A stretch of 63,090 nt of DNA, the filler included, from Kipferlia bialata (Eukaryota): NCBI GenBank assembly GCA_003568945.1. It is 5 parts of 5 records of this genome, joined end to end, with 100 filler letters (N's around TTAATTAATTAA, not from the genome) between each part and the next. Parts side by side here need not be neighbours in the genome. Positions count along the whole stretch, not along the records: positions 17,842 to 35,578 come from BDIP01000513.1; positions 35,679 to 53,406 come from BDIP01000514.1; 3 more parts are not named here. One strand, written 5' to 3'. Of the stretch, positions 1 through 60,584 are shown in pieces; position 1 is the stretch's first letter, and the number at the start of each line of letters is the position of its first letter. A program made the translations under genes and the position numbers. The notes under the pieces are model-generated. The model searched no databases and had not been told where the DNA came from. It saw only the letters and a program-made list of their open reading frames with translations.

Positions 1-70
1 TTTCTCTTCCCTCTTTGTGCCCCCCCCCCCCCCCCCCCTTTCTCTCTCTCTTTCTGTCTCACCCTCTCAG

Positions 71-3778: not shown

Positions 3779-3820
<42 letters not shown>

Positions 3821-9457: not shown

Positions 9458-9928
9458 AGAAGCTGTAGACTCAGAAGTTGCTGGGCGAGTGCTCTTGGGT
9501 AAGAGCCAAAAGTTCTCTTTCAGTCTGCGTGACCGACTACAGAGTTGCCCAGGTCAAGGCGCGGTAATGTGTGAGTACCGTGTCTTCTAGTGTATGCTTA
9601 AGTGAAGGTCCCAAGGTACGTATGATTCTCCTACCATCAGGCATGTTGCTCCTATCATATTACTATTGACATAGCGTCAACTGTTAAGGGTTACCCTCAA
9701 CTTGAGGGTATCTCACACAGCTGTACTATATACCATTTGAGATGTGGCTTTGGCTAGGTATATGAACTTCATATAATATGAAGCCATCGCTGGGTATATG
9801 ATACTCAATCATGATGGTTATGTGTATGCAAATATGACTGTCAAATTGACAGTGTCAATGATCAAAAAAGTGCTATTGAACCCGGACTCTTAATCACTAT
9901 ACCACTATGACGATCTATAACCAATTGC

Positions 9929-11586
9929 CTATCTAGTAGTCCTTGGGGGAATCACCCCTAGGAGGAGAGTAAGGGTCTTCTCTACAAACTCTGAAAAGAG
10001 AGTGAGTCCCTCACTCGTCTGAGGACCAGGGGCTCCTTGCTCTGTGACGGCACTGCCAACCCCATCATCCTGTGAGGGTTCGGCTGTGGACCGAGTCATA
10101 GAGCCTGTCACCCCTGACCCTGCCTCTGCCCAGGACATTCCGTTCTCAGACGCTGTCACCTGGGTATAAGGTACCACCATTCCAACAGTTAATTCAGGCC
10201 ACTATGATATTATGTCTCCACCACATACCAGAACGGGGTCCAGAGGTATCCTGCCGAGGAAGGGCACATTGCCCATAGCCTCTGCCATAGCCTTCAAATT
10301 AGTTATACTTAGGGAGAGGGCTATTCGGACAATGAATCATTGTAAATGATAATACATACCAGAGAGCTATGTGGTGTTATGTTGCCTTACCTCTGCTCCA
10401 CCGTGTGCTGGAGGGTAGATCTGCATCACGAGATTACAACAGGGGCATACATATCCACTCATGTTCTCCACTACCCCCAGAACTGGAAGGGAGACTGCAT
10501 TGCAGAAAGACACTTCCTTTCTGACGCTGGCCAAGGCTACTTCCTGTCGTCAGCGATACACAGTTCATGTGCCGTTGGATACTCTATGGGGAATCAACAA
10601 CGTTTCTTCACCCAAATATCGTATGTTGTACCTGGGGTGTAGCCACCACAATGGCCCTTGGTGTCTTGTGGGCAAGAGCAGGGAGTAGCATACTGAGGAC
10701 TGACAGGTGCTCATCTGATGTACCAGGAGGCGTGTCGATTATCAGGTAGTCCAGAGGGCCCCACTGAACCTGGTGGTGAGTGCGAGTGGAAATAGTGACC
10801 AAGACGCCTGAGTAGTAACGGCATTACACAGTCTGTATACAGGAAGTCTAATCTACCTCTGTCAGGAACTGCTGTATCAGTGCTGTCTTCCGGGGCCCCC
10901 TCCAGATCACTGCATCATCGTCTCCATTCAACAGGAACCTAGGTGTCAGGAGACAGCATCTCCACCCCTGATAGTAGTACGTGTACATACCCTATGCTCA
11001 TGACTGACAGATTGTCTGCGACAGGTACCGGTGTCCATCCGTGGTTGTTGTTGCGGACCTCCTTGCCCTGGATGTTGGTTACTTGGAATTATACACACAG
11101 ATACTTTTGGAGTGGTACAGATTTCTCACCTTAGTGCCTGTGAGAGTAGGCAGACTCGGTCCACAGATATCCAGATCCAGCAGCCCGACCCTAGCACTGT
11201 AGACACTTGCCAGGCAGAATCCTAGCTGGGCTGATATTGTTGACTTGCCTACCCCTCCCTTGCCGCTGAGTATCACCAACACCTGCGGTCAGAGAAATAA
11301 GTGTCACTTCTCCTTGTTGCCATGGTCCAAAGTAATGAGAGTACAGAATAGAGCATATACATATCGTACATTCTGGACTCCTCCCAGTCTCTCTGCTATG
11401 GTGCGATAGAGTGCAGGGGCACCCGTAGCAACACCAGTGGATCCTGGTACCGCAGATTTGTGGCATACCCCTTGTGTTACAGATACTCCAAAGTTTGCAG
11501 TCCACACAATTGTCAGAGTAATCTAGTAATTGTACCTCTCTGTGGGCACACTGCACATGTGGAGGGATCAGGTCGGTCACAGACAT
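9929..11586 (-). CDS. NBP35: Cytosolic Fe-S cluster assembly factor Nbp35/NUBP1 (Mrp/NBP35 P-loop ATPase), multi-exon
   Basis: N-terminal CX13CX2CX5C ([24 protein letters not shown]), [76 protein letters not shown] and FLGRIPLDP. Confidence 0.95.
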
Positions 11587-12160
11587 GCTCTTGGTCACTT
11601 GGTCCTGGGTGACCCTCCTGCAGTAACATTTACGAACTACACGTAGGGAGTATAGAATATGAACTAACCATGCCACACGGACCACAGGTGAATCTGTTCT
11701 TGGACTGGAGCTAGTGCCCTCAGGAAAGACAGCTTTGCGTTGAAGATCCAATAGAGTAAAACAGTGGGCTCTGATACTCTATGCCGAAATGGCCAGTGGC
11801 TGTCCCAGTGTTTGTTGTGTGTTATAGAGATGTGTTAAAGTGGACACAGCTCTACCGTATAGGAGGTAATCTTTTGTTACTGTAGCCTCGATATATTACC
11901 GTAGCGGGTGAGGGACTCAATGTCCGATTTGCCACTATAAGAATGAATGCTGTTATTACTATTCTCTGGCGTTCAATTATTAGTAGTCTATTAGGAGGTT
12001 TCTAGACCCCAAGTAGGATGATATCCCTGGAGTAGAGGGGGGCACTGGAACAGTTGCTGACACTCCTATAGACACTCAGGGCGTACACACACCAGTGGGT
12101 CATCTCTCAAAGACTACAGAGTGAGCACACAGCATCTCTGTCATCATGTAGCCATCTGCT

Positions 12161-15100
12161 TCAGACGAAACCCAAGTCCAGCAGAAGGTTGACGATACCA
12201 GGGAGAACCTCAATAGTTCCCAGGGTGAGGGAAAGCAGTGTCTGAACTACGATCTTGATCGGGTCGTTCACCACTGCATCCTGGATCACACCAATGATGT
12301 TGGCAAGTAGCCATGCCCTTCCGACAGAGCTTGCAAACTTCATACTGTAGAGGAGCATCATAAAACCAACTCCTAACAAGTAGATGAAGGACAGGGCGTA
12401 CCACAGATACGCAAACCCATAAGGCAGGTCTACCAGAGACAGGCTGAGAATGGTACGGTAGAGCCAGTTCCTATCACGTGGAGGGAAGCGCTTCTTCAGA
12501 GCATTGTCCTTGTGCTTCCCAATAGGGCGTGTGTGGGAGAATAGATACCTCAGTAGCATTGAAGGGGGAAGTGCTATGATGGTGGTGCCACACGCTATCA
12601 GGAAGGTCTGCTTGTAGGTGTACGGGACACAGACTACTTCTGAGACCAGCAGGCCCTCCTCCCCAGGTCTGGCCACCCCTGGCTCACAGTCTGCCCTGAA
12701 AAACATAGCAGAGGTGAGGAACAGACCAAAGACAAACACAAAGATGTTTGTGACACGTCTAGGCCCTGTCATGTTTGAGTCCTCACGTGTCTTGTTGAAG
12801 ACTAGTCCCGTCCACTCGTGTCCTGTGTACAGATCCTGCTTGAGCTTGGACCTGAATCGCTGCCAGAATGTCACCGCCTCCCCATCCTGGCATCGCTGCA
12901 TCTTGGCCTTGATGCGCCTCTCAGTCCGCAGCTCTTGGAGATCGAGAGGGAAGCTGGCAGTGGTTGCAGCTGTAGGCTTAGACTTGCTCTCGGCACTGTT
13001 GAATGGGGTGTGAGACACTGCTGAGAGTACCACTGGTTGATCGGTCCACGGGCATCGTATGACGCCAGACTCATCCGACTCACGGTTCCCATCCTCTGTG
13101 TCATCTTCGCTAATCTCCCCGATATCTACATCTGTCACTGACAGAGTGCCAGGGCTAGGCGGTACATCCAGAGGTGTGAAGACTACACTGTGTACAGAGA
13201 CACACGAGGCCGGTTTGTTGGTGGAGCCAGTTGTAGGTTTCCCTGCTTGCATGAACTCCCACTCGGCGTCACCAGCAGTCTGGCCTCCTGCAGTGTCACA
13301 CCCCGGGCTCTGTGCAGTAACGTAACTCTCTAGGGTTTCGTTTCCCACACCAGCCTTCGAGTCCGCTGACTTGAACACTTGGGACCTAAAGAAGGTCGCC
13401 ATGCCATTCTGGAGGTTGTCGAAGCTCAACACAATCATGAGTCCGACATATACAGAGAAGCACACTCCAAGAATGTAAAGTCCCATGGGATTGTCCTCCA
13501 CAGTCGTGAGGAGATCTGGAATCTCCTCAATGTCAATCACGTTCACATCAATGCCATACTGGTGGAAGAATGCCACGAAGGACGTAAAGTGGTCTGTCTC
13601 TGCTAGGATATAGCCAAGGTCGGGGTTGTATGTTTGGGTTGTAATTCCGGACTCAGTCCACTCTGAACCATTCCATGCCTTCAAAAGAAGAGTAGCATTG
13701 AGGGCTGCGCTCATCTCAGGATCAGGCAATGATGTGAGAGGGATCTTGATGGTAACTGGGGCAGCCAGGTCAGCGACGGATACTTCAGTGCCCGAAGTGT
13801 CAATGACTTCAACAGATGTCATGGCTGAGTAGAAGGAAGTGGAGTTGTCTCCCATGAACGGTTCAGGGAGAGAGACAACGGCCACAGAGAGGTCACTGTC
13901 GTACCCCATATGATCCCTAAACGTAGCTGGAAGAGTAATAGTCATGTCACTACCTGGGACTCCCACCTCCTGCTCCACTGACTGTGTGGTCAACGCTTGT
14001 GCACTGAGCTGTATGTGATCAGTCTCTATACTGACCGGTCTCTGTCCCTCAACGAGTCCAGCTGCCACTGATGCAGCCATCTGCTGTACCGCTCCAAACG
14101 CCTGAGCGGCTGACAACGCACTACGCTGGGAACTAATATCATCGCTCCAGACACTGTCGTGGGCGTCAGAGTAGACTGCTGTTGTTGCAGTCACGACACT
14201 GACAACTTCCATGTTCTCGAGGCTCCCACTCTCTGCAAGTCTAGCAACAATGGATGAATAGTAGTCAAGTGGCGCATTGGCCATCTGTGACAAAGCACCA
14301 ACTATCTGAGTCGTGATACTTCGACCTCCAGGCAGAGATAGAATATCGTCCAGGGTGTCTGTAATGTAGTTGGTGTACAATGTCATGTCGTTACTAGACA
14401 ACTCATACTCATTGGCACTGGCACTTTGGCAGAGCACATCAAGAACGTTGAGTGCCTTGGATATGTCAGCCGCCACAACAGCTGCCTTGAAATGGACCTT
14501 CATGGAATCTGCATATGTGTCCATTTCAGTATCAATGCTGACAGTCACACTTGCACTGTCCGTGTAGGACACAGTGGCGCCTTCGGTGTCTGTGACTCTC
14601 ACTCCAAGGCTGTAGAATCCCTCTGGTAGGAAGAGGTCACAAGAGGACTTGTATTCACTCGACGCTAACAGTGTTGTTGCCTCACTGTCGACGTCACTGT
14701 ATGTGAACGAGTACTTGAGAGGACCATTTCCCTCCGGCACTATCCAGTCTATAGCAGTTACTATCAAGGACTCTGTAGCGGCCACCTCATAGGAAGACAC
14801 AGTAAGGTATCCGCCCGAGGGAGAGAGAGTGGGACACACTGTAGTTGTTGCACTGCCAGATGCGCCTAAGGTATCTGTGCAAGACAGCTCGAATGAATAC
14901 TCAAACACTTCTTGCAGTGCCCCAGCCCCTAACACCAAGTGCGGAGTTGCGGTTGAGGTTGAGAGTAACACACGTGGATCATCGAGTGAGAGAGTGGGAC
15001 CAGATGTCTGCTGCCATGCGTATGTGATACTGTCACCAGAAGGAGACACACAATGTCCGTGTAGGGTGATCTGTGAAGAAGCGAAAGTAACTTCAGGAGT

Positions 15101-17740
15101 CACAGTGATGCTACAGTCGACTGCAGCTGTCTCAGTAACATTGATAGTCGCACATGACGTGGATGATGCCGTCCCATCCAGAGAACGGGTGGCTGTGAGG
15201 CAGATATCAAAGGCACCAACATCCATCCCTGCGGTATTGAGACACACAGACTCCCCATTTCCAGCGACAGCAGCCATCTCAACAAGGGTGTCTGGTACAT
15301 TCCACTCCAGGCTGTCGTAGTAGGTGGAGCACGAAGTTGCACAGACTTCTTCTCCAGCCATAATGAAACTGGAGTCCAGTGAAATGCAACTTGTCGGCAG
15401 GTATACTTGGGACACTACATCAATACGGTCCTCTCCATATGCGTCATGTCCGTGGATCCCATACCTCACACGTACAGTCAGTGTATGACTTGATCCTTCG
15501 GCAAACGCACCAGCAGGGATAGCGAGGTGTGACGTGATGGTCCAGTAATCAGTAAGTCCATCAATGTTGTCACAGTTGTCACCAGTACATAACCACATGA
15601 ACTCCAAAGATCCTACGCCCCAAGACAGGTCGTAGAGACTAGAGTGCTCAGCACCAACCACTAAAACAAAGGCATCTTGAGAGACAGTGAGTAGATTTCC
15701 CGCTTGGATGGTGACCTTTGGCACTGAGTCATCGACGATACGGATGGTCTTGGTTGCCGCCGAACTTGAACCGTCGATGCCAGTTATAGTCAACGACACT
15801 TCTAGGTCACTATCTACGGGAAGGTTGGTCTTGTTAGCGTCAAGTACCAGAGAAGACTGGGTCATGTACTTTTCAGTCAGCTCTAGCCTGGCATTGTTCA
15901 GTGATGGTACCACAATGGTCCACTTGTATGACACCGGTGGCTTTGTCTCTGTATGCGCGGCGTATAGAGACATGGTCCCGGACAACGCAAATGTAGCAGC
16001 TCCAAGAATAGATGCCTCCGGTATGTTTAGAGATACTGGCCCTTGGATAGCAATTGAAAGAGGTCCCGAGAGGTATGCACCGTACTGGTTGGAATCCAGT
16101 TCAACTGGTGACTCTACTTGAGGCAAGGCACGTAATGGCTCCAGGAGAGTGACCGCAGTGCCGTCCTCAAAGGCCGAGAGGTAAGCTTCTTGCTCGCTTC
16201 CAAGCACTATCGTAACTGCAGTTCCAACACTCCGTTGGTTCGAAATCTGTGTCAAGAGACACCGTGGATTCGTGCCAAGGGTTGATACGTCAGATAGAAG
16301 CTCAGCACAGGGTACATTTCCAACAGTGGTGTCCAGAGTAAGACCAGGCAGTGAGAGTGTGATGTGACCCATTGTGTTATACCACTGACCAGTAGCTGAT
16401 GTAGGCATGACACATACGATCACAGTGTCGCTAGTTTCGTGACCGTAGCTGTTCAGTGCAGTGATCTCAATATTGAACCACATGTCCTCAATGAGAGAGT
16501 ACTCGGTCGCCAAGTACAACTCAATACTGTACAGAGCCGTGTTGATGTCTTCTAAAACACCCTCGCACTCAAGAGTTGTTATCCTACTTGTGGTGTCAAG
16601 ACAGATTGATACATTGTCTTGCACAGTATCTGATATGGCCAACGCAACCCCATTGTCCACCATATCTTCAGAATTTGAAAGATATTCGGGTATGGACAAT
16701 GTCACTGTGAGTGTTTCAGCAGCATCCCTATGTGCTAACAGAGGAATAACGTGCATGTATGCATGTTCATGGACAAACAGAGAGCCATCGTAGTTGATGA
16801 ACGTCGGAGGCTCTGGAATCATTGTGACTTGAATAGTAACGGTTACGGGGTCCCAGTTTCCATGAACACTGTCTAGAACAGCCACTGTCAAGTAATCAGC
16901 GCCAATGAAGTCAGCTGCTGGTGTGTAAGTGACTTGATTCAGGGTTGTCGACAACCTGCCTGCAGATCCTGTCAAGCAACAGCTCTCTCCTGCAGCTACA
17001 CAGTAACCATCGGGAGGACACAGCGACCCACAATCCACAGTGAGACATGCCTCCAGAGTCTCAGAACCAAACGGTGAATGACTCAGTCTAAGTCCTGTCA
17101 ACACCAGGTCGTCACCCTCTTCAAGTGTCAAGCCCGTGGTTGATACCACTTCTGTGATGTAAGGAACCACAGTTAGGGTTGTTTCTGTTCCAAGCACGGT
17201 GTTCTCATTGTAGAGAAGGACCAATGTGTATTCACCACAGAGAGTGAAGATAGAAGCAAGAGTCGATGGTTCATCTACAGTCGTGTAGTACTGTCCTGCA
17301 AGGTGTGTAAGCTCCAAGATGTCAGGTCCAACGTAGGAGACATCATCGCTGGTAACTCGTATACCAAGGCTTCCTGCAGTGACGCTGTTGCTGTACTGGT
17401 CGAAAACGATTGCGGAAATGTACAAATCGGCACTTGTCACGTGACAAGAGAGGTCAGATGACGAGAATATCGACGACGATATTCCATTAGGGGATCCGAA
17501 CCCAACAACAAAAGTCGACTCAGTTGCTGGGTAGGCAGTGCCATCCACACTCAGCTCCACGGTGTATGTACCGGTTGCTGTGACAGCTGTAGTGTCACAG
17601 GTGTACTTGGACACACCTCCGTCGTATGAGAGAGCATGGGACTCAACAAGAGCGGCGCTCGAGTCATAGATGTTGACTGCTACCGTGTAGCCACTGGATA
17701 TGGCATTCCCACACGCATCAGCCAGAGTGGCAGATAGAGT
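12161..17740 (-). CDS. Large intronless surface receptor, polycystin-1/REJ-like (Ig-like repeats, PKD/REJ region, GPS-like motif, about 6 TM segments); 5'-truncated by contig end
   Basis: The 1817-aa ORF stays open to the contig end (TLSATLADACGN...). It has REJ/PKD-like motifs (SITYAWQQTSGPTL, YSFELSCTD, PSGGYLTV..A.DW...PLKYSF), GPS-like AWNGSEWTESG...ETDHFTSF then a TM, and a PKD1-like HEW..F...RVT..F TM block. Confidence 0.8.
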   Translation of the reverse strand, partial: TLSATLADACGNAISSGYTVAVNIYDSSAALVESHALSYDGGVSKYTCDTTAVTATGTYTVELSVDGTAYPATESTFVVGFGSPNGISSSIFSSSDLSCHVTSADLYISAIVFDQYSNSVTAGSLGIRVTSDDVSYVGPDILELTHLAGQYYTTVDEPSTLASIFTLCGEYTLVLLYNENTVLGTETTLTVVPYITEVVSTTGLTLEEGDDLVLTGLRLSHSPFGSETLEACLTVDCGSLCPPDGYCVAAGESCCLTGSAGRLSTTLNQVTYTPAADFIGADYLTVAVLDSVHGNWDPVTVTIQVTMIPEPPTFINYDGSLFVHEHAYMHVIPLLAHRDAAETLTVTLSIPEYLSNSEDMVDNGVALAISDTVQDNVSICLDTTSRITTLECEGVLEDINTALYSIELYLATEYSLIEDMWFNIEITALNSYGHETSDTVIVCVMPTSATGQWYNTMGHITLSLPGLTLDTTVGNVPCAELLSDVSTLGTNPRCLLTQISNQRSVGTAVTIVLGSEQEAYLSAFEDGTAVTLLEPLRALPQVESPVELDSNQYGAYLSGPLSIAIQGPVSLNIPEASILGAATFALSGTMSLYAAHTETKPPVSYKWTIVVPSLNNARLELTEKYMTQSSLVLDANKTNLPVDSDLEVSLTITGIDGSSSAATKTIRIVDDSVPKVTIQAGNLLTVSQDAFVLVVGAEHSSLYDLSWGVGSLEFMWLCTGDNCDNIDGLTDYWTITSHLAIPAGAFAEGSSHTLTVRVRYGIHGHDAYGEDRIDVVSQVYLPTSCISLDSSFIMAGEEVCATSCSTYYDSLEWNVPDTLVEMAAVAGNGESVCLNTAGMDVGAFDICLTATRSLDGTASSTSCATINVTETAAVDCSITVTPEVTFASSQITLHGHCVSPSGDSITYAWQQTSGPTLSLDDPRVLLSTSTATPHLVLGAGALQEVFEYSFELSCTDTLGASGSATTTVCPTLSPSGGYLTVSSYEVAATESLIVTAIDWIVPEGNGPLKYSFTYSDVDSEATTLLASSEYKSSCDLFLPEGFYSLGVRVTDTEGATVSYTDSASVTVSIDTEMDTYADSMKVHFKAAVVAADISKALNVLDVLCQSASANEYELSSNDMTLYTNYITDTLDDILSLPGGRSITTQIVGALSQMANAPLDYYSSIVARLAESGSLENMEVVSVVTATTAVYSDAHDSVWSDDISSQRSALSAAQAFGAVQQMAASVAAGLVEGQRPVSIETDHIQLSAQALTTQSVEQEVGVPGSDMTITLPATFRDHMGYDSDLSVAVVSLPEPFMGDNSTSFYSAMTSVEVIDTSGTEVSVADLAAPVTIKIPLTSLPDPEMSAALNATLLLKAWNGSEWTESGITTQTYNPDLGYILAETDHFTSFVAFFHQYGIDVNVIDIEEIPDLLTTVEDNPMGLYILGVCFSVYVGLMIVLSFDNLQNGMATFFRSQVFKSADSKAGVGNETLESYVTAQSPGCDTAGGQTAGDAEWEFMQAGKPTTGSTNKPASCVSVHSVVFTPLDVPPSPGTLSVTDVDIGEISEDDTEDGNRESDESGVIRCPWTDQPVVLSAVSHTPFNSAESKSKPTAATTASFPLDLQELRTERRIKAKMQRCQDGEAVTFWQRFRSKLKQDLYTGHEWTGLVFNKTREDSNMTGPRRVTNIFVFVFGLFLTSAMFFRADCEPGVARPGEEGLLVSEVVCVPYTYKQTFLIACGTTIIALPPSMLLRYLFSHTRPIGKHKDNALKKRFPPRDRNWLYRTILSLSLVDLPYGFAYLWYALSFIYLLGVGFMMLLYSMKFASSVGRAWLLANIIGVIQDAVVNDPIKIVVQTLLSLTLGTIEVLPGIVNLLLDLGFV

Positions 17741-17741
17741 G

Positions 17742-17841: not shown

Positions 17842-18179
17842 TAAATAAGAAGCTGCCCTCTCCCCCCCCCCCCCCCCCCCCCTCCCTCTTCACTCCAGTC
17901 TCACTTTCACTTTCCATTGAATCATTCGCTAACCTGGATCTCTCGTCTCTCACACTCTCTCAACCAATGTATATGTTCATTTACATATCACCAAGAGTAG
18001 ATATTATGGGAATACTATTGTCTCTCTCTCCACCCCCTTGTTACCAGACTCTCTGTCCCTAGCTCAGGAGTATATGTATTCTCTCCCCTTCTCTCTATAT
18101 GTCCTCTTCTCTCTCATTCTCTCTCTCTCCCTACACCCTAATTACCAGACTCTCTGTCCCTAGCTCAGGAGTGGATGTA

Positions 18180-18217
<38 letters not shown>

Positions 18218-18233
18218 ACACCCTTATCACCAG

Positions 18234-21200
18234 GCTCTCTGTCCCTAGCTCAGGAGTGGATGTGGTGTACACTTGGGTCAATGGTACGTCTCTCTCTCTC
18301 TCTCTCTCTCTTCACCCTTATTGGTGGGTCAATGGTATGCATAGTTTCTACCTCTCTCTCTCTCCCCTACTATACTCTGTCCACAACGTACTAACCCTGT
18401 GCAGCTAATCTCTCTCCCCCCCCCTCTCTCTCCCTCTACACCCTTATTTCAGACACTGACCCTGTCCACAAGACTTCACTCTCTCTCTCTCTCTCTCCCC
18501 CCCTCTACACCCTCATTTCCAGGCACTGACCCTGTCCACAAGGCACTGAGGGATCAGTACATGGCATCAGACCCACCCACTAAGGTATTCGTTCGTATGC
18601 ATTTATGTATAGAGGGAGAGAGAGGGGGGGGGAGAGAGGGAGGGATCAATACGTCAGTCCCACCAACCAAGGTATATACGCGATTATATATTGTATACAT
18701 TGTTTTACTGAGGGGGGGAGAGAGATCAGGACATGACATCAGATCCACCCTATAAGCATATAGTGTTAAGATTCTCTTGACGCGTTATTGTCGAAGTATA
18801 CTCTCTCTTCTACTAGACCCTTACACTAGGTTGTCATCGAAAGACTGGTGGCATCGTCGAAACTCTCTCTCTCTCTCTCTCTCTCTCCTTAGACCCTTAT
18901 TCTAGGTTGTTATTGAGAGACTGGTGGCAGAGTTGGATGGTGAGGTCATCGAGACTGTGAGTGAAGGGGAGGGAGAGGGAGAGGGAGAGGGAGAGGCTGA
19001 GCTGAACAGATGGGCAGAGCACGATGAACTGAGGTATATTTCTATATCCATACACCCAGATATAGAATGAGTGCAGACACCTATATGCTTAGCTTTTGTA
19101 TATGCGGGCAGAGATAGAGTTGAACAGATGGGCAGGGCACGATGAACTGAGGTATGCATACATGTATATATACACATATATACATTCTCATTTAGTTGTA
19201 GTGCCGACTATAACTATATCTAAACTAGCTTTGTATAGTCAGATATTGAATGAACTGAACAGATGGGCAGAGCACGATGAACTGAGGTATATATACATGT
19301 ATACACACACACATATATGTATACATATGTATATATATGTATACACATATATATACACATATTAGTTGAACCGATGGGCAGAGCACGATGAACTGAGGTA
19401 TGCATACACATATAAACATATAATGCATTAGTACAGATTCTTTCTATCTATATATACTATCATTGTATATTCAGGTATTGAATGAACTGAAGAGATTGGC
19501 AGAACATGATGAACTGAGGTGGGTTAGTCTTTCCTCTCTCTCTCCCTCTACACCCTTATTGTCAGAGCACGATGAACTCAGGTGTGTATGTCTATTCCCC
19601 CCCCTCTCTCTCTGTCTGCAGCCTTCTGATCAGTGTCTACCCTCATTCTCTCTCCATCTACACACTTAATGTCAGGTACTCTCTCAGGAGTGTGGAGAGT
19701 CTCTGTCCAATGTGCGGCACAGTCAGAATAGGTATATGTAATAGCAGTAGTACATAATCTATAGTACATTTGTATATGTTAGTGCATGTATATCTATGAG
19801 TCTCTGTCCAATGTGCGGCACAGTCAGAATAGGTATGGTGTCAAATTGTTTCATTTCTATACACCAAATGGTATATATGTGTGTATATATGTATATATAT
19901 ATAGGTATAATACTTATATATAATAAGTGTATGTGTTCCATTGAGTGTCCAATGTGCGTATAGTCAGAATAGGGACATGATGACCTCCATATGTAAATAC
20001 ATATGAGTGCTGAATATTTGTAACTCTCTCTCTAGCCCTCAGTGACCATGGACCAGATTCCCTCCTGGCTTAATTAAATATATATATATCTATATTGAGT
20101 ATATACATTCATTGTATGTTAATTGAATACTCATTTTATAATAATATCATATATAAACAATTTAACCTGACACTCTTCATCTATGCTTGGAATCAATACA
20201 TTGTATAACTACATATGTGTACATATGTATACATTTCTAACCCCTTAGTCACCATGGACCAGATATTCTCCAAGCACATCTACCACCCTTCATATATATG
20301 GCGATACCTCAATGTATACTGCAATATATATATATATATATGTGTTTGTTCTTATTCTCACCCTTCAGTCACCATGGACCAGATCCCCTCCTGGCTCAAC
20401 CTGACCAACGACAACCTGGCAATGATAGACCACAAGGTACGCAACAGAAACATGGCACCTCATAACCATCTCTCTCTTAGTCATTTATCTCCTAAATGGC
20501 AGATTTCCATAGGTTGTACGTCGGTAGTGACACCTTTCTCTCTCTATCTCTCTCTCTCTCTGACCCCCTTAGGACATATACGCACAGTGGCTGGAGACCT
20601 ACCTCACTCCTGAAGAGGAGCGTTTGGCCGTCTCAGCGTCTCAGCGTCTTGCTGAGTACCTCCCCTCCTTCTCCTCCCCCTCCATCGAGACCCCCCTCCA
20701 TCTGATACCATCACTGTCCGAGGCATACCTGTACTCCAATGATGACATGATGTTTGGGAGTGAGGTATGTACATATGTATATATATATATACATATATAT
20801 AGAGAGAGAGAGATACCATCACTGTCAGTGGCGTCTCTCTATTCCACTGATGATGTTGTGATGTTTGGATCAGAATTATGTCTGTATTGATGTTGGGTTA
20901 TACTTCAAATGATCTTCCATATTGCAATTGACCATCTCTAATTCCAATGAATATGCCTTATTCTATTGAATAGGTCTCCCCCTCTGACTATGTGGACAGG
21001 GGCAGACCTGTCCTATATGTATATATACTAGCTATTCTAATGATCTCTATAGCATATTCCAATGACTAGATCTCTGAGTCTGACTATATATATATCTAAT
21101 GACTAGGTCTCTCCCTCTGACTATGTGGACAGGGGCAGACCCATCCTGTACTCTGAGTGGCAGACACCCAGATGCGCAGAGGTATATATGTGCATAGTAT

Positions 21201-21953
21201 CATGTATTTATATGTGTGGTTTCCACTCTGTTGTTCTCCCTCCACACCGTCACTCTCCCCCTCAGGTCCTTTAACATCAGTATCAGTATCAGTGTCAGCA
21301 GATACTGAACATACCCCAGTCCTGCACTCTGGGGCTCTCCTTGTACACCCCTATCTCTCCCTCTACACCCTCTACTCACCCCAGTCCTGTAAGTCTCTTA
21401 TCTCTCTCNNNNNNNNNNNNNNNNNNNNNNNNNNNNNNNNNNNGTAAGTCTCTTATCTCTCTCTCCCTCTACACCCTCTACTCACCCCAGTCCTGTAAAT
21501 CTCTTATCTCTCCCCCTCTACACCCTTTTCTCACCCCCAGTCCTATAAATCTCTTATATCTCTCCATCTACACCCCTATCTCTCTCCCCCTACACCCTCT
21601 ACTCACCCCAGTCTTATACTCCCCTATCTCCCCCTCTACACCCTTTTCTCACCCCCAGTCCTGTAACGAGGCCATGATGGACGGGACTACCTGCATACAG
21701 GTACAAGAGCACTATATATATATTACAATATAATAGTATAATAGTAGAATTATTACAATGTAATAATGTAAATATCTAGTGAATTATGTTATACAACGCT
21801 TAATGCAATATGATCACTATATACATATGAATAGGTGTGATGCCATGATGGACGGGACTGCCTGTATGCAGGTAGACTTACATAGATATGGCTGACGTGT
21901 ATACATATATGCCTACACATTGTGTAACTGGACCTATTCGCATTTGAATGCCA

Positions 21954-21996
<43 letters not shown>

Positions 21997-22533
21997 GTAT
22001 GTATATATACATACCGCGGCCAAGATGGACGGTACTCCATGAATATGTATATGATGAGTATTGTGTAAATATATATGAATAGTCATTTGATTAACCCCAG
22101 CAATGCAATACCACTGCCTGTGGCTACAGTGCAGGGGCATACTTATATATACTTAAGTATATATATATATGATACATAATGTATATATACATGCTATAGT
22201 CATTGATATCAGCAATGCAACACCACTGCCTGTGGCTACAGTGCAGGGGCATATATATAAACATCAGTATATATAAATATGATAAATAATGTATATATTC
22301 ATGTATAACTAATGTATTAACACTAGCAATGCAACACCACTGCCTGTGGGTACAGTGCAGGGGCATGTCTACCAAAGGGGGCTAGTGGTGAAGAGGCAGA
22401 GGAGGACTCTACGATTGATTCTCCGATCAATTCCACGATCAATTCTCCGGTTATGGGCAGGACTGGCAGGGTACAGTCACTGAGAGATGCACCCAGGAGG
22501 AAGTACTGCGTGGAGGTATAGTATAAATATACT

Positions 22534-22568
<35 letters not shown>

Positions 22569-22736
22569 ATATGTATATGTATAGTGTATATATACACTCT
22601 CTGAGAGATACACCCAGGAGGAAGTACTGCGTGGAGGTACCTAGCTGTCTCCAATATCGGACACCTGTTTCTCTCTACATTTTCTATCTCTAGACTCTCT
22701 TAGTATATACCATCTAGGGCTGCAGTCCCCCTGTTA

Positions 22737-22770
<34 letters not shown>

Positions 22771-49886: not shown

Positions 49887-51425
49887 ATGGCCCCAGTTTC
49901 TCCTGTACGTTCATTCTCATCGTATATGTGGGGTTTATGCTCTATTTAGATAGGATTGGGGTGTATTCTTGGTATATTGGGTACATATGCATAGTAATGG
50001 TCTCTTGCTGTCAATTTGACCTGTGTGGCTCTGATATCACGTTATTCAGTTACTCTGAGCATATGGTCACATTTTGTTTTGTGCGATATTTGTCTTTGAA
50101 GTGAGTTTGTGGCTGAGTTGTTTCATTGTGTCTAATTGTGTCATTACCTACCTTCTCCTCATCCCAGCACTGCAAGTGTGTCATTGTGGGCGATGGTGCC
50201 GTTGGCAAGACCTGCCTGCTCACTGTCTACGTCGAGAACAAGTTCCCTACAGTGTACGTTTCTATAGTGAATGCGGTCCATCGGTTGTCTTGTCCGTTCT
50301 GTCTACACAAGTCTTGCATCTCTCACAGTCAGGTACGTCCCCACCATCTTTGAGAACAAGCAGACCTACGTCCAGTTCAGGGACCAGACCGTCACATTCA
50401 TGCTCTGGGATACAGGTGCGTGTTACCTTCACATACTGGTGTCAGAAGGGTGTTCACTCCCTTCAGTCTCTCTCCCTCTCTGTCTCACCCCCAGCTGGCC
50501 AGGAGGAGTTCGACCGTCTCAGGCCCCTCTCCTACGATGGCGCCAACGTTATCCTGATTGCTTACTCTGTGGACAGCGAGGTATGGGATTTACACTTGAG
50601 TGGTAGCTACTCTCTCTGTCTCTTGGTTGTCCACTTTTCGCCTCATATTGTATACATAGGAACAGTCGTCAGTATGAAATATTATTAAATCTAGTGTTCA
50701 TATCGCGCGCCCCCCCCCCTCTCTACTAGTCTTCTCCCCTCACCTTCCAGACCTCTGTTGAGAACATCACGTCCAAGTGGTACCCCGAGGTGTCGCACTA
50801 CTGCCCCTCCATCCCAGTGGTGCTGGTCGGTACCAAGGCAGACCTCAGGGAGTCCGAGGAGTGCAAGTGAGTATTCTTTATAATACTATATATAGTAGTA
50901 TGTATTATATATACATTATCTAGGCAGACCTCAGGGAGTCCGAGGAGTGCAAGTGAGTATACATTTAATACACTACATAGAGTATGTATTGTATATACAG
51001 TATACATATTACCAAGGCAGACCTCAGGGAGTCCGAGGAGTGCAAGTACGTAGATTGTATTACAATTGCTTTTTAGTGATCTCCATTGTGTATTGATCTC
51101 TCTCTCTCTATCTCTCCCTTATATCAGGAACAGGATGGCTGCCAAGGGCTATGCCATGGTGACCTCTCTCTCTCTCTCTCTCCCTCCCCCCCTCCCTCCC
51201 CCCCTCTTACAATAGGAACAGGATGGCTGCCAAGGGCTATGCCATGGTGACCTCTCTCCCTCTCTCTCTCTCCCCCCCCCCCTCTTACAATAGGAACCGT
51301 ATGGCTGCCAAGGGCTATGCCATGGTGACCGAGGCCTCCCTCTCTCTCTCTCTCCCCCTCCCCCCCTCTTACAATAGGAACCGTATGGCTGCCAAGGGCT
51401 CTGCCATGGTGACCGAGGCCTCCCC

Positions 51426-51464
<39 letters not shown>

Positions 51465-52033
51465 CATATGTATACCCTAACCCCTAGGAACAGGATGGCT
51501 GCCAAGGGCTATGCCATGGTGACCGAGGCCTCTGTCAAGGCCGTGGCCAAGCAGATCGGGGCAGCCGACCTGGTCGAGTGCTCGGCCAAGTCACAGCACA
51601 ACGTCAAGGTATATTAGCATGACAACATAGGTTATACAAGTATATGAGTTTATATAGTGTGTGAATCCTATATTTACTAGGCCAAGTCACAGCACAACGT
51701 GAAGGTATATCTACTATATGTAAGAGTAATTAGTATGTATATAGAATGTCTTGTACATGTTTACTCGGCCAAGTCACAGCACAACGTCAAGGTGGGAATA
51801 TATATATATATATAAAGAGAGAGAGAGGGAGAGAGAGTATGTGTGAACACCTATATATATCCCCCCCCTCTTCTCACCTCCAGGAGGTGTTCTAGTCTGC
51901 CCTATATATATGTGTGTGTGTATATAGTGTATGCACTTACCCCCAGGAGGTCTTCGAGGCTGCCCTGGCCGCTGCCTTTGACGCCCAGTCCAAGTCGGGC
52001 TCAGGGGACGCCCAGACATGCTCCCTCATGTAG
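49887..52033 (+). CDS. Rho-family (Rac-like) small GTPase, 7 exons
   Basis: [80 protein letters not shown], a Rho insert helix, ECSAK and C-terminal CaaX CSLM*. Confidence 0.95.
51128..51422 (+). repeat. Intronic array of 4 acceptor-side echoes of the Rho exon starting at 51488
   Basis: ag|gaac(agg/cgt)atggctgccaagggctatgccatggtgacc at 51128, 51216, 51294 and 51378. Confidence 0.92.
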
Positions 52034-52283
52034 ACACCATCATCATCTCTCTCTCTCTGTCTATCTATGTGTGTCAATGATGTGATCCATATTGTACGCA
52101 GTCCCGGGTGCTCTGTTTCTGCTCCCACTCTCCACCATATTGTTTCGGAGGCGGCTGTGTCACAGGTCGATCTATCTCACTGTGTGTTGGGCATGTGTTT
52201 TGTGTGTGACTTGGTGGCGTGTACGCTGAGTAAATGTATTCTTCTGTGACTGAGTATATATATATATCGAATCGATATTATCG

Positions 52284-53357
52284 ATGTATGGTTTTTGCCT
52301 AAGGGGTTTAGGAGCTTCTTTCCGACTGTCATACAAAGTGATGGTACTCTCCACCCAACCCCCCATGTGGGATGACATGGGCCCTGGGCTGCAAGCGGTG
52401 ACTGTGGTGTCAATATTGGTGACTGTGATAGAGCTATGCTTCTTTGTGGCCATGCTCAAGCACCGCAAACAGTCCAGCTGGTCAGGTCAGGCTGTGTGCA
52501 TCATGTGCTTCTGCATGGCAGTCATAGTAGTCGGGGGGAGTGTGTGGGACACGTACATAGTGCTGTCGTACTCTGATGTGGACAGTCTGCCTGGGTTGCT
52601 ACCCTATCTGGCCTGTATCTACTACTGTGCCGGCTGCACTGAGCTCCTGGTCTGTCTGGCCCTCACCCTCCTCTACGTCCAGGTGTTCAGGTCGGTGCTC
52701 AAGCCTTCCACCTTCAGATGTATATACCGACTGGTGGGGTGTGGCTCAGTGTGTGCCCTTGTGGCTAGTCTGTGGGTGTTGCTGGGTGACATGCTATACA
52801 ACCTGGAGGTGATGGAGAGGGAGAACTCAGACTGGTATCCAGAGTGGCACACACACGCCCTCTCAGTGTCCACTCGCTACTTACGGGTCCAGATAGCTGC
52901 TGTCGTCCAGCTGTTAGTCATCATGATAGCCCTTATGGTTGTCAGGCGGGGCATGGCGAGACGTATGCACCAGCTCTCCATGCCAACACAGCCTAGTCTC
53001 CCTGTCTCTGATTCACATACCCCTAGAGAGAGAGAGAAAGAGAGAGCGGCACCCAGACGCAAGTCCCTTAGAGAGAGAGAGAGAGAGAGTGCGGTACCCA
53101 GACGCAAGTCCCCTCAGAAGAGTGACATTCTCCCTGTGCTGTATAGTGTGTATACCCTAGGGTTGGTCCTGGCCATGTGTGCATACCTAGACCCCAGTCG
53201 CTGGGTGGAGGGAGATGACGCAAGTAGGGGTATCATTGTGCTCAACATTGGTGTGCACTGTATCCAATGCATAGTGGTGTGCGTTGTCTTCTACCCACTG
53301 GGGGCTAGGAAGGGTCGTGTAGGGAGGGGACGGATACACTGTGACAGTCAGGTGTAG
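52284..53357 (+). CDS. Intronless orphan seven-transmembrane (GPCR-like topology) protein; start may be the ATG at 52341 or later
   Basis: The 357-aa ORF has seven hydrophobic segments, a long basic loop between TM5 and TM6 and a short basic tail. Confidence 0.7.
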   Translation: MYGFCLRGLGASFRLSYKVMVLSTQPPMWDDMGPGLQAVTVVSILVTVIELCFFVAMLKHRKQSSWSGQAVCIMCFCMAVIVVGGSVWDTYIVLSYSDVDSLPGLLPYLACIYYCAGCTELLVCLALTLLYVQVFRSVLKPSTFRCIYRLVGCGSVCALVASLWVLLGDMLYNLEVMERENSDWYPEWHTHALSVSTRYLRVQIAAVVQLLVIMIALMVVRRGMARRMHQLSMPTQPSLPVSDSHTPREREKERAAPRRKSLRERERESAVPRRKSPQKSDILPVLYSVYTLGLVLAMCAYLDPSRWVEGDDASRGIIVLNIGVHCIQCIVVCVVFYPLGARKGRVGRGRIHCDSQV

Positions 53358-53359
53358 GA

Positions 53360-53397
<38 letters not shown>

Positions 53398-53406
53398 CGC
53401 GGCCCC

Positions 53407-53506: not shown

Positions 53507-53661
53507 TTTAAAGTACATATTTGGAGGTTTTACACCACACCAGTGCGTTAACGGACACTAATGGGGTTTATAAACACCTCTAAGGTGTATATAAAAATAT
53601 ATAATTATTATATATTCACAATTATTTTATATATATAAAATATATAGCTGGCCCAGCCCTA
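53507..53661 (-). mobile_element. Possible terminus of a hAT-like DNA transposon/MITE
   Basis: The minus strand reads TAGGGCTGGGCCAG followed by a very AT-rich subterminal tract. TAGGG-starting ends are typical of hAT TIRs. The other end is not in the contig. Confidence 0.3.
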
Positions 53662-53662
53662 G

Positions 53663-54414
53663 TGTACTGCCATGGATGCCTGGAGGTAAGAGGCCAAGAG
53701 TGTATACAGTTCGTATTCCACACCACAATGTAGCTACATGATGATTATTATTTGTATGTACTGCCCATTATTCACAGATGGAGGGAGGCAATATCTAATG
53801 TCATTGCTTACGGGAAGGGAGTGTATTCATGTAGTAGTGCTGCAGCTGCGGTCCTATCTAACTATCAGACAGTGCCCCAGTGTGATGACTGTTCTAACAG
53901 AGGGTTCCTCACGTGCTGCAACCTATCGTTAACTAACTGTGGAGTGGAGGTCTGCCTGGATCACAAGCATGACCACTGGAAGGTACTAATAACCAGTATA
54001 TATATATATATATATGTATATTCGACCACTATAAGGTACTAGTAACCAGTAGTACAAAACGTGTGTGTCCCATGATTGCGTTGTTTGCACCATATATATA
54101 TATACATATATATATATATACCATGCGACCACTGGAAGGTGAGAAGTAGCACAAAACACGTGGGTTGCATAATTGCGTCACAATGCATATATATGCAATA
54201 TACATGTATATTCTATTATCCACCCGGCTGATACGGTATCACCGACCACTATACCCAAATACCCGAATACAGTACAGATAGATACTTAAGAGTGATACCT
54301 CACACCCAGGTGTGTAACTTGGGGTGTACAAGGCCACGGAGGGGCTGGGGATCCTACGATGAGTCTTCTGAGATTGACTCAGCATTTGAGGACGAGTACT
54401 CTGATGAGTACTGA
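53663..54414 (+). CDS. 3' part of a small Cys/His-rich (zinc-finger-like) protein with acidic tail
   Basis: Exons 53663-53685, 53869-53982 and 54310-54414 splice to YCHGCLE|TVPQCDDCSNRGFLTCCNLSLTNCGVEVCLDHKHDHWK|VCNLGC...EDEYSDEY*. Confidence 0.55.
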
Positions 54415-54757
54415 CTCAGTACTGTACTGGGGTTTCAACACATTACTCAATAGTGCATATCTTGTATAGAATGCATATCATGTATAGAATGACTGGGTTC
54501 TTCATTTAGCACACTAAGAGGTAGTTGGCTAAGGAGTATTCGGGGAGTTTGATGTGAGAAGAGTGGTAAAGAATGGCTCCAACAGCAGGTTCATTCATTA
54601 CTAGATACTTGTCTGACACCATTAGCATAACCTCCCTCTCCTGAGTATATGTGTCAGCGTATTAGCACTTCCAGCACCTCTGAGTAGTCAATCTCCACGC
54701 AAAGGTATGCTGTGTACCCACATAGCCTGGATGATTCAAGAGAATCATCCATACCTA

Positions 54758-55702
54758 CTAGATGTCCCATCGGTCTACCACCGCCTCTGAGTAGTCAACC
54801 TCAAAGCACAACCCGTCCTGCACTACTAGCACCCGACCCTCAACCAGGGGTATGAGGTGGGGTGGTCGAGTTGCATAGCAGCACGTGAATGTCAGAGTGG
54901 CCAGGGGCACCCAGAGGTCACTGCACCTGTCATACAGACAGACACGCACAGTCCTGTCATCACTGTACAGCATGTTGCTATCAGGGACACAGAATACACC
55001 CACAACGTGTTGGTGCACTGCCGTGCTCCTGCATGTGGTCAGTATGGGACCTGTAGAGCCTACACGGAGTCCCTCGTCTAGGGTATACACTCTCCACTCC
55101 TCGCCGTATACGCTATCACTCAGATGCACTCTGTACGGAAGGCACATTCCCGTTTCAGGGTGGAGCTGTGGGTGGACACTATCGATGTCGGCCTTCTGTC
55201 TTGGCACAGTGGGCAGACCAGAGCTGAGGCATGTCCATGTTGGCATGTTTGGCATGTTTGGCATGATACTAGACACGTCACAAGCCCACACCTCTGTCAC
55301 ATCCCGGACCCGTCCTATGATGCACAGACACCCATGGATCTCACCCAGATATGCTATGGACCGAATCCGAGGGGTTCTCGTATCTCTGTCTTGAGTAGCA
55401 ACCTCACTCCACACCCTAGTCACAAGGTCGAGGTATACTACCCTTATAGTGTAATCAACCATAGCGCAAAAGAACACTCTGTGCCCAATGGTAACAGGGG
55501 TCAATGATGATGCTGTGACCTGTCTGAACAGCCTTATGTCCACGTTGCTAGTGTCATCACAAGGTACAGGCTCCCAGGAGTGCTTGTAGGACCTGCATAT
55601 GTCAGTATCAACGAACAATTGATAATAGCCACCAGCATCAAGTGTACCTTTTCCCTTCTTGTTCTCTGTGCCACACACCAGTTCCAATGAAGGTCCGGCC
55701 AC
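54758..55702 (-). CDS. Kelch/beta-propeller-like hypothetical protein; probably the last exon of the gene at 55894-59452
   Basis: The 314-aa ORF has kelch-like segments (YLDLVTRVWSEV, LCIIGR, LYDRCSDLWVPL). It begins right after an acceptor (cgtag|GTG) rather than at an ATG. Confidence 0.6.
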   Translation of the reverse strand: MAGPSLELVCGTENKKGKGTLDAGGYYQLFVDTDICRSYKHSWEPVPCDDTSNVDIRLFRQVTASSLTPVTIGHRVFFCAMVDYTIRVVYLDLVTRVWSEVATQDRDTRTPRIRSIAYLGEIHGCLCIIGRVRDVTEVWACDVSSIMPNMPNMPTWTCLSSGLPTVPRQKADIDSVHPQLHPETGMCLPYRVHLSDSVYGEEWRVYTLDEGLRVGSTGPILTTCRSTAVHQHVVGVFCVPDSNMLYSDDRTVRVCLYDRCSDLWVPLATLTFTCCYATRPPHLIPLVEGRVLVVQDGLCFEVDYSEAVVDRWDI

Positions 55703-55893
55703 CTACGCACAGGGTCTGAAGAGTGAGGGGGTGGCTCTACTCTATACAAAGAGGCATAGGTGACTATAACAAGTAGGCCTATAGGGTTACTGAAGAGGCA
55801 GATGAAGTGGATAATGTCATTCTACCTCATCGTGGGATATCGGTATCATGTGTCTCCAATTCGCAAACTCCATCAGAACCTCCTGGCCTGAGG

Positions 55894-58800
55894 TCAGAGT
55901 TCTATCACTTCTATGACCGGGGAAACCCCAATAACACTCACGGCCAGAAAGAAATTAATCATACCTCTCACAACGACAGGGAACTCCACCAGTGGCCACT
56001 TTTCCACACTAATACCACGAAGGTGAAACTTGGTACCCACATATTCAGTCTTCATCTCTGAGATTACAGGAGCGTTAGGCTGATACCCCTCTATAGTCAC
56101 CTCTGGGTCAGAAGAGAACGTTTCTGGTGTCTTGGGAATCATAGCTGCATGTATCACATCTCTAACCACTGTGGGAGTGGATGGATGGAATGCGACCTGC
56201 ACTGTACACTTGGTTAGTATGTCACCAGCATCTTGGGAGTGAAGGACTGCAAGAAGTCTGTTCATAGTCTCTCCCTGTCTCTCCCCTGAGACATCCACAC
56301 CTGTTAGGTCCAGTAACCCATCTGAAGTAGCAGCAGTAACAGAGCCGTGTGTGTCACATATATGCATCCACAGTGGTGTGTACAGGGGCAAGGTGACACA
56401 AGCAGTGGCCATGACAGAGAGCATACCCAGTCTAGACAGAGTAGAAGGTGACTCGTATCGATCAGACTCGGGTCCAGACATGGATGACACAAGGTCAGTG
56501 AGGGTACAGAGAGAGACACAGTCAGGGATGGAGAGAGGCTGGCTGCAAGAGCCCAGCCCTCTGACTAGCTCTGTCTCCCACCGTGCCACTACCCCTACCA
56601 CATACACCGTCCAGGCGACTGATCTAGGAACAGTATGAGAATGTGTGTCGGTCTCTCTAGTTCTTGCATGGGCAGCCCTCAGTGCACCCAGTAGGTAGGC
56701 AGCTGCCACCGTCTGTGAAGACACTGCCTGGCCCGTAGTGGTGAGAGGGGCACCTACAACACCTCCACTCAAGAGCTGTGTCAGTCTTTCAACCGTGTCA
56801 CCAGCATCCTCACTAGGACTCGCACGCATCTCCCCCACAACCTCTGCCACTTCCACAGCCAGTATGCAGAGTGTCTCATCTAGCCCAGTCACACCAGACC
56901 CCTCTAGTATACCCCCACTGCTCCCAAGCCTTTGGGCCATTCTGTACACGACTACCGCTGGGTGCACTCTCAGCTGAGTAGCAGTCTGCTGGAGATACTC
57001 TCCCCCTAGGCCTCGCAAAAGGGGATCTGGAAGTGATAGGAGGAGACGTCCACCGTTTGTCTCCAGCAACACAGAGTCCACATCACACAGCTGACCCACT
57101 CCATACATGCACGATACATTCTTGGGCATAGTGCATGATATGGGTTCTAGCCAGGTGTCACTTGCGCAGTGGTACACATGCATACTACTCGTGGGGTAGC
57201 CTTGGAGTTCTGTGGCAATGATGTATGGTCCGGTATTGATGAGTATAGGTCTGGCTCTGGGACATGGGAATTCAGCCTTGACATCCCACTTTCCAGAAGG
57301 AGAAAGGCGTATATGAACCATTTCATCGTCTCTCGATGACTGGTTGGCCATGACATGCAAGGAATTGCAGTGACATACAAAACTATGAGTTCTCTTGATG
57401 GGGACCAGAGTGGAGGGGAGCTGTGCCCAGCCAGTAGGACCTCTGGTCCAAACATCAGTATACCGGTGGTTGGTGCCTCTTATCACGGCTCCATATCCCT
57501 CCCCTCCCAACACTACTATCTGGTCATGTAGAGACGTAGTCATGTGGGAGTGTCTCTGCAGTGGCCTCTGACCTTCGGCACAAGAGATAGATACCGCACT
57601 CTGCCTCCCTGGTACCAGCTCTGCCAGCTCGATAGTCTCTCCATCCACAAAACTATACATCGGCGCTATCTTGTTTGATAGCAGTAGATGATTGCCTGCG
57701 CTAGTGGCTCCGCCTATGTCAAAGTACTCTGGCAAAGAGACAGGTAGGGTTCTAGATGTCACCGATGGCGTCTCAGAATCCACCAATACACACTCTCTCC
57801 CTACTCTAGGAGGCACCTCCACGGTCTCAACATCCGTTTCATGAACACGGATAGCCTCACTGTATTCTTCTTCAGAGGTCGTACACACACTTAGAACTAG
57901 ACCAGGGGATATAAGGACCAGACTCCTGCTAGTCCCCCCTTCACCACAGATCTCTGCTCTCAGGGTAGTGTAAGAGAGATCAGGATCAGGTATGTGGGTG
58001 TTCTCTACTCTCTCACTCACAGCTGCAGTGATGAACGGAAGCACAGGTGCCAGAGCCAGTGCACAAGGAGAGGTGCAGGAGTCTGTGACGCTGAGTGTTA
58101 CACTTGTCACTGTGACAGGCAGTGCGTGTAGGGCAGTCAGCACTCTCAGGCCAAGGGATGTGTCTGGCACACTGGAGAGGGGGGGTACAGACAGATACTC
58201 ACAGACATGGTCTAGGACCAATGTTTCACGCATGTCATCTCTCTCAAGTTGCAGTAGGGTTAGTAGCTCTACGAGCAACTCTGTAAGAGAGGCATACTCC
58301 GTACACATAGCAACAACGATAGCAAGGAGACTGGATGGGGACAGAGAGAGGAGGGTGTTGGCCTTTCCTTCGAGGCCACATGTCTCCACCTCACTGTGAA
58401 GTAGAATGCATAGAGCACCCAAACCCTCAGCACTGCGGGTGTGGGCCCTAGACACCCACTCAGGGGGAAGACCAAGGCACAAGGCTCTGTCCACAATAGG
58501 ACTGGAGACAGATACTCTGTCAGTAGTCTCAAAAATACCAGCCCCCTCCTCTAACTGTAGTAGAAGAGGACGGCCACCCACTGGTAGGAGTAGCACACTG
58601 CCATCATCTAGGGTACACGCAGAGTGGCAGTCAGGGATGTACGCAGAGTCACCCTCTGCATATTGGGCTATAGGACACACATCCCATTCACCGTACTGCA
58701 ATCCCTCTCCCCCTCCACTTTTCACCCCATCTATAGGAGTGTATGCATGTGCTCCTATTATCATCAGTACCCTAGGCCGTTGACTTCCCACTGACACCAC

Positions 58801-59271: not shown

Positions 59272-59506
59272 ATGGGAATGCTACTTCATAGAGTGATATA
59301 TATAATGATAAGGTGCTAGTAAATGTATACATATCGTTCTCTCAGGGTAATCTCATATGTGTATATGTCACCAACCTGTGGACATTGAACATGTATGTGT
59401 GTGGGTTGGGGACAGCCTCCCTTGAGTCATAGCAGTACCCAGATAGATTCTCTTGAGTGTCAGAGGGAGGGGGGGGGGGGAGGGCAAGAAAGTAATGCCC
59501 AAAAAG

Positions 59507-59606: not shown

Positions 59607-59703
59607 GGGGGGGGCCCCGGGGGGGGGGGGGAAAAAAGGGGGGGGGGGGGGGGGGGGGGGGTAGGAGTGTACAATCCTATTTACAATATTAGTAGCGTGG
59701 TAC

Positions 59704-60535: not shown

Positions 60536-60584
<49 letters not shown>

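Follow-up and report, generated by a model that had tools for sequence, protein, structure and literature searches.

The window analysed here is a 63,090-nucleotide (nt) stretch of DNA from Kipferlia bialata (assembly GCA_003568945.1), made up of five contigs (positions 1-17741, 17842-35578, 35679-53406, 53507-59506, and 59607-63090) separated by N linkers. K. bialata is a free-living fornicate whose short-read assembly was reported to contain 124,912 GT-AG introns (PMC5874029). Within the introns of five genes of the window lie short partial copies of the neighbouring exon edges, which we term echoes. The sample comprised these five gene models, all within the window, with 99 exons in total.

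One exon of the window was 100% identical to a protein record, here P0001, named at source glucose-6-phosphate dehydrogenase (G6PD) of K. bialata. The corresponding model at 35981-45038 (+) has 30 exons and on splicing yields P0001 exactly; 6-phosphogluconolactonase (6PGL) is fused to G6PD within this one 752-residue protein. The G6PD-6PGL fusion gene carries 37 echoes, the first at 35756. The other four models were built by hand and have unbroken frames. A Stealth-family (GlcNAc-1-phosphotransferase-like) gene at 18234-35157 (+) has 41 exons, 1403 codons with no stop, matches to Stealth_CR2 and CR4, and 56 echoes, beginning at 18049. A queuosine-salvage gene at 45937-49401 (-) was modelled with 12 exons and has 10 echoes, two of them with stop codons (46236 and 47278). 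A Rho-like GTPase gene at 50168-52033 (+) has six exons and nine echoes, four of which lie at 51128-51422. Finally, an unnamed gene at 59704-62687 (-) has 10 exons, 262 codons with no stop, and 16 echoes, the outermost at 63035. Single exons of the Stealth-family, queuosine-salvage, and Rho-like models had Pfam support. A search of protein records with one Stealth exon returned no match, and this model rests on its unbroken frame and the Pfam matches; the gene, of at least 1403 codons, is possibly annotated differently or unannotated.

Echoes were detected by aligning each exon, blind to codons, to its neighbouring introns and accepting scores of at least 26. Among 6544 pairings of exons with foreign introns, which served as the null, the 99th percentile of the score was 24 and the maximum 36. 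Of 131 local matches, 128 were anchored at the exon edge, and the remaining three were excluded. Acceptor and donor sides contribute 64 each to the 128 echoes, which occur at 73 edges of 57 of the 99 exons, with up to seven copies at one junction. The aligned exon part ranged from 15 to 54 nt with a bell-shaped distribution around the median of 31 nt, and the median spacing between copies was 105 nt (5-95% range 71-156). Introns without echoes had a median length of 109 nt, as against 642 nt for those with four or more. The splice dinucleotide was retained in most copies (AG in 58 of 64 acceptor echoes, GT in 51 of 64 donor echoes). A preliminary description of this DNA had placed the feature at 18830-51500; echoes do lie there, but they extend further, from 18049 to 63035. 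Two arrays contain N gaps (21409-21442 and 39221-39233) whose sides overlap, and the assembly is likely to have counted one copy at each twice. In the real and echo acceptors modelled alike, a branch-like motif is fused close to the AG; such a motif near the AG is known from introns of Giardia, Spironucleus, and Trichomonas (PMC6679479).

Echoes differ from their exons mainly at silent sites, as the preliminary description had claimed, and a codon-blind tally over the 99 exons gave a stronger bias than it had supposed. Differences at codon positions 1, 2, and 3 stood at 71:63:193, and the ratio of nonsynonymous to synonymous differences (pN/pS) was 0.22-0.26 across score cut-offs of 26, 32, and 40. 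Differences were found at 106 of 2576 0-fold sites and 116 of 671 4-fold sites, giving a ratio (d0/d4) of 0.215 with a 95% confidence interval of 0.154-0.289; a value of 0.5 or more was reached in 0 of 3000 edge-bootstraps. The ratio was 0.169 after trimming 8 nt from the truncated end and 0.26 when shared changes were counted once. By gene it was 0.11 for G6PD, 0.19 for queuosine salvage, 0.23 for the unnamed gene, and 0.26 for Stealth. Comparisons of echo with echo were equally biased (0-fold 91/1681, 4-fold 78/464), and differences private to one echo were also biased (57 in 684 0-fold sites, 39 in 175 4-fold sites).

Individual arrays illustrate the pattern. The acceptor-side echo of exon 18906 (18830-18853, +) carries three silent changes, the donor-side echo of exon 25138-25211 (25281-25319, +) four with no missense change, and the donor-side echo of exon 28531-28672 (28726-28759, +) six together with an in-frame 9-nt deletion, previously noted at 28728. 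The acceptor-side echo of exon 29611 (29505-29551, +) includes an AGT/TCT serine swap. Among the donor-side echoes of exon 38669-38752 (38864-39292, +) a glycine codon appears as GGC, GGA, and GGG; a 13-N gap in this array duplicates one copy. Echoes of G6PD exons 25, 27, 28, and 29 lie at 43181-44890 (+). The codon differences listed earlier for nine pairs are all present in the sequence, two of them (GTT/GTC at 26797 and a seventh silent change at 29505) on the truncated end just outside our alignments.

The preliminary description had set this tally as a test, on the premise that dead copies would give a ratio near 1. The tally does fall below 1, but the null required correction: the neutral ratio is about 0.5, because a dead copy changes everywhere and its exon at silent sites only. 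The data still undercut the corrected value. Single-lineage simulations with duplication, deletion, and swapping of copies gave 0.50-0.65 in 32 of 32 settings, and simulated populations without exchange between haplotypes gave pooled ratios of 0.48 and 0.52 (12 seeds each, seed range 0.38-0.69). These simulations speak against the earlier suggestion that copies cycle in and out of the coding position on one chromosome. The observed interval ends at 0.29, below this null and below the d0/d4 of at least 0.5 expected of passive duplicates. It follows that, after splitting from the exon branch, the echo branch must have been exposed for some time to protein-level selection, and on this point the preliminary description is upheld.

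The bias is not the result of the exon racing ahead, as the bias in private differences and in echo-echo comparisons indicates. Under an exon-only speed-up or codon optimisation the silent differences should be common to all echoes, yet just eight 4-fold differences were common to all and 39 were private. Silent singletons were spread over several echoes of one array, which also counts against these two readings, and the exon codon was the commoner one in 76 cases and the rarer in 56 (P = 0.10). Two further candidates were set aside. Recursive splicing would, by reasoning only, exert no selection on codons, and error-prone copying filtered at birth would leave the flanks related.

As expected of passive dead copies, the echoes accumulate stops, frameshifts, and random missense changes. 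A model of decay at the 0-fold rate, in which the missense count matches by construction, predicts 7.1 stops, where eight were observed, and 47 silent changes, or about 94 if the exon drifts equally, where 168 were observed. One of the stops had already been noted near 47270 and is an AAG-to-TAG change at 47278. Of 12 internal indels, 11 shift the frame, and the 85 missense changes caused by single bases were no more conservative by BLOSUM than random ones (P = 0.24). In 36 arrays the outermost echo showed more 0-fold change than the inner one (39/682 versus 24/731, paired P = 0.008) and had more often lost its AG or GT (nine versus four of 36). Change at 4-fold sites was alike in the two (27/177 versus 27/194, P = 0.36), and thus the silent gap does not grow with age; it seems to have been present at birth, with decay added afterwards. 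Judged from the sequences, the echoes are likely to be dead now but to have been working junctions on a different lineage.

The intron sides of the echoes behave quite differently from the exon parts. Mismatch is about 0.08 within the exon part and jumps to 0.39-0.61 immediately past the AG or GT, near the level between unrelated junctions (0.4-0.74), and in 24 echoes with an identical exon part of about 30 bases it was still 56% in the flank. The six acceptor-side echoes of exon 40821 (40167-40743, +), for example, have 0-2 differences in the exon part and acceptor flanks that are 50-92% different. The end of exon 18906-19033 has five donor-side echoes (19107-19581, +), each of which continues from the GT into a different intron start. 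The outermost of these (19535-19590, +) is preceded by an acceptor-like tail with 16 nt between AG and GT and looks like a hybrid of two different junctions. The acceptor-side echo of exon 26890 (26797-26829, +), a 93-nt tandem unit, is one of a small number in which the intron part remains nearly identical to that of the real junction. On average, flanks within one junction were more alike than those across junctions (6.4 versus 1.4-2.5 for acceptors), and 17% exceeded the 99th percentile; the echo flanks are therefore likely to be deeply diverged homologues.

Despite this divergence the echoes retain splice signals of real strength. Acceptor echoes scored 3.49 (n = 58), compared with 4.39 for real acceptors (P = 0.13), -7.9 for decoy AGs, and -1.85 for a neutral-decay simulation in which real flanks were mutated at random to an equal extent. 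Donor echoes scored 2.34 (n = 51), compared with 2.13 for real donors (P = 0.21), -1.28 for decoy GTs, and -1.46 for the simulation. The echo mean was reached by 0 of 2000 neutral-decay simulations, and real-strength scores were found in all eight rank classes (single, inner, middle, and outermost echoes). The five acceptor-side echoes of exon 30664 (30092-30594, +) each have their own branch-like motif and AG. Each unit thus looks like a junction that was, until recently, in working use on a lineage of its own. In P0001 the innermost site is the one used, at 30 of 30 exons.

Among the readings offered in the preliminary description, capture from diverged alleles fits best. We think it slightly more likely than not that out-of-register recombination or repair with a diverged allele installs the junction of that allele beside the exon and pushes the old one outward into the intron. 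Alleles whose introns had drifted apart would pair in exons only. The first array would be seeded by a break near an exon edge, the repair of which copies about 105 nt of the other allele across the junction and joins it without full homology, leaving the resident edge in the intron and the incoming junction inside. Later pairing of the working edge of one allele with an echo of another would expand or shrink the array unit by unit at the breakpoint already used; the reach of neighbouring echoes was equal within 2 nt in 24 of 55 cases, compared with 16% by chance. The spliceosome would take the innermost site, so that the retired copy is harmless and decays. Use of the innermost site is what exon definition would give. 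Echo and exon would then differ at birth by allelic divergence that had already been purified, for which subtracting 0.042 twice from 0.196 gives a minimum of about 0.11 per 4-fold site. When toy populations were given exchange and a silent diversity of 0.15-0.21, they yielded ratios of 0.18-0.28, pN of 0.05, pS of 0.18-0.27, and flank mismatch of 0.37-0.54 (12 seeds each), and with a diversity of 0.02 the ratio was 0.50 (12 seeds). Metamonads were reported to lack Ku, DNA-PKcs, and classical end joining, and a reliance on homologous recombination has been suggested for them (PMC8516963).

Several observations weigh against capture from diverged alleles. As toy models, with rates that were tuned and flank mutation set by hand to 5-fold, the simulations speak to feasibility only. 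Flank turnover would have to be about 5-fold faster than that of silent sites; in Paramecium, introns were reported to be less diverse than 4-fold sites (bioRxiv 10.64898/2026.05.26.727746). Rho alone among the genes did not show the bias (d0/d4 0.66, with a wide confidence interval of 0.29-1.56 on four edges). Single seeds without exchange went down to 0.38; a separate single-seed run, at 0.39, lies inside the noise of the 12-seed rerun. Middle echoes were the least decayed at 0-fold sites (8/437), so that decay is not monotonic with rank. A search for a second allele with a G6PD exon gave one match and no second among longer proteins, and of 4074 shorter matches the best 120 included no near-identical fragment, though short fragments would be missed there. 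A metagenome scan gave three loci, all distant (24-39% identity) and set aside, and no second allele. The donor haplotypes are therefore hypothetical, although in a haploid or inbred culture they would stay hidden. The main text of the K. bialata genome paper never uses "duplicat", "heterozyg", or "ploid" (PMC5874029). Lastly, the first contig (1-17741) bears no echoes, and 0 of 150 close direct repeats start in it, despite its intron-rich genes. Echoes vary by region.

Three other features of the first contig were noted. It is poor in (TA)n tracts, with four compared with 28 and 42 in the next two contigs. A gene at 1518-3970 (+) is built of regular 84-nt exons that resemble leucine-rich repeats, and has no echoes. 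From about 12000 to 17741 (-) runs a long stretch without visible intron-like filler that resembles one large coding exon.

Of the competing explanations, the one that survives best has intron ends swapped in from other introns, by ectopic DNA copying or by reverse splicing and cDNA, while the DNA or mRNA of a diverged allele supplies the copy of the exon edge. It would produce the sharp step at AG or GT without hyper-fast intron drift, and it agrees with the finding that the 95th percentile for unrelated junctions was exceeded by just seven of 64 flanks of acceptor echoes and five of 64 flanks of donor echoes. It also draws support from a (CT)n-linked acceptor motif at 18217-32674 (+), present in 11 copies at about eight different Stealth-gene junctions, with none in the first contig and none on the plus strand of the G6PD contig; this motif may reflect the copying of intron ends between introns of one gene. 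However, the greater average likeness of flanks at the same junction and the existence of plain tandem units such as that at 26797 do not fit, and allelic divergence would still be needed for the silent excess. We regard this explanation as unlikely.

A slightly weaker candidate is that the echoes are selected today, their splice sites and codons being used in some transcripts, as the preliminary description had allowed, or in a rearranged DNA copy. Real-strength splice signals and the low missense rate would agree with such use, and 24 of 58 echo acceptors score above their own real acceptor. Against it stand the stops at the decay rate, the frameshifting indels, and the missense changes that are random by BLOSUM; on this sequence evidence the suggestion of use in transcripts was not borne out. 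Moreover, a truncated exon head cannot join mid-exon by ordinary splicing, and P0001 follows the innermost site throughout. Present-day use is accordingly doubtful.

Less credible again is an artefact in which a short-read assembler strung junction fragments of several culture haplotypes in tandem. Silent differences and working flanks would result, the longest exon part (54 nt) and the spacing of about 105 nt lie near a 55-mer and a 100-nt read, both usual defaults, and there are the two N gaps inside arrays, one of them duplicating a copy. Yet no Ns interrupt the joints from mid-exon to mid-intron, nor do these joints consist of shared long words, and a graph mis-join should presumably not make them. 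Working alleles would not carry eight stops, 11 frameshifts, 19 lost AG or GT dinucleotides, and an age gradient, and the exon parts are bell-shaped around 31 nt rather than piled at 54, with up to seven copies per junction. On these grounds an assembly artefact appears unlikely, indeed quite improbable. Ordinary tandem duplication within a single chromosome, whether or not gene conversion and copy swapping took part, would explain the tandem geometry, the shared breakpoints, and the few young units with near-identical intron parts, and is the known origin of boundary-spanning repeats, but it is contradicted in the window by simulated ratios well above the upper confidence limit and by flanks that diverge yet keep their splice score, and we hold it to be very improbable.

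Repeats spanning a splice junction are known as single-locus oddities; in the window they occur at 73 exon edges of five genes with a signature that duplication on the same chromosome did not produce in simulation. If capture from diverged alleles is correct, a single assembly is enough to gauge sex or parasex and population diversity in a eukaryote lineage that has been little sampled, and intron length, with its rise in median from 109 to 642 nt, is explained by one process. We put forward a broader proposal tentatively, at somewhat less than even chance: Kipferlia continually takes up splice junctions from other alleles and stores the displaced ones in the intron by age. One genome would then preserve, across tens of thousands of junctions, a dated sample of former alleles, with direct evidence of genetic exchange and of a silent diversity above 10% in a free-living relative of Giardia, and a route that renews intron ends, possibly even between introns of one gene, at an unchanged intron position. 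If capture from diverged alleles holds, the genome also offers many natural tests of how a reduced spliceosome chooses the innermost site when several are equally good, even among acceptors, where it is the last and not the first; 87 of 174 spliceosomal proteins were reported found (PMC6679479).

In the literature searched we found no description of this pattern in Kipferlia or elsewhere; supplements, which lay outside the scope of the search, could bear on it. Unequal crossing-over and gene conversion are known among tandem gene copies or from donor pseudogenes. The echoes would share with those systems out-of-register exchange and non-expressed copies able to feed a coding locus. They differ in that the units are 15-54 coding bases in the introns of their own gene and hold silent rather than protein diversity, and thus no role in antigen variation is indicated. 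Nor are they alternatively spliced duplicate exons, since the aligned exon part is 15-54 nt even for exons longer than 100 nt, with one splice side only. Introners, which are intron-generating mobile elements (PMC9860276), resemble the echoes in that ready-made splice signals recur in genes. Echo units, in contrast, are half introns with no GT...AG pair in the six arrays inspected, and they form no single dispersed family in the window, where the best matches across junctions were tracts of (CT)n or (TA)n and an acceptor motif confined to one gene. Intron gain by tandem genomic duplication (PMC4974935, PMC3265369) likewise starts from a short duplication within a gene, with splicing keeping the protein as it was. 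There, in the cases described, a new intron arises from a duplicated exon, whereas echoes add no intron but lengthen an existing one and replace its end.

The closest parallel is the 37-bp variable number tandem repeat in intron 7 (IVS7) of human F7 (PMC1557585), in which the unit also spans the splice junction, the spare intronic sites are normally silent, and the exon-adjacent site is used. As in a boundary-spanning minisatellite, the echo unit includes the exon edge and the splice dinucleotide (128 of 131 matches were edge-anchored), but it lacks near-identity over its whole length, with a flank mismatch of about 0.5 and 12 of 128 flanks above the 95th percentile of the null. The F7 minisatellite, as described there, consists of identical pseudo-sites at one donor of one gene. 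The Kipferlia echoes, by comparison, occur at 57 of 99 exons, at acceptors and donors equally (64 and 64), with intron parts that are largely dissimilar and exon differences that are mainly silent.

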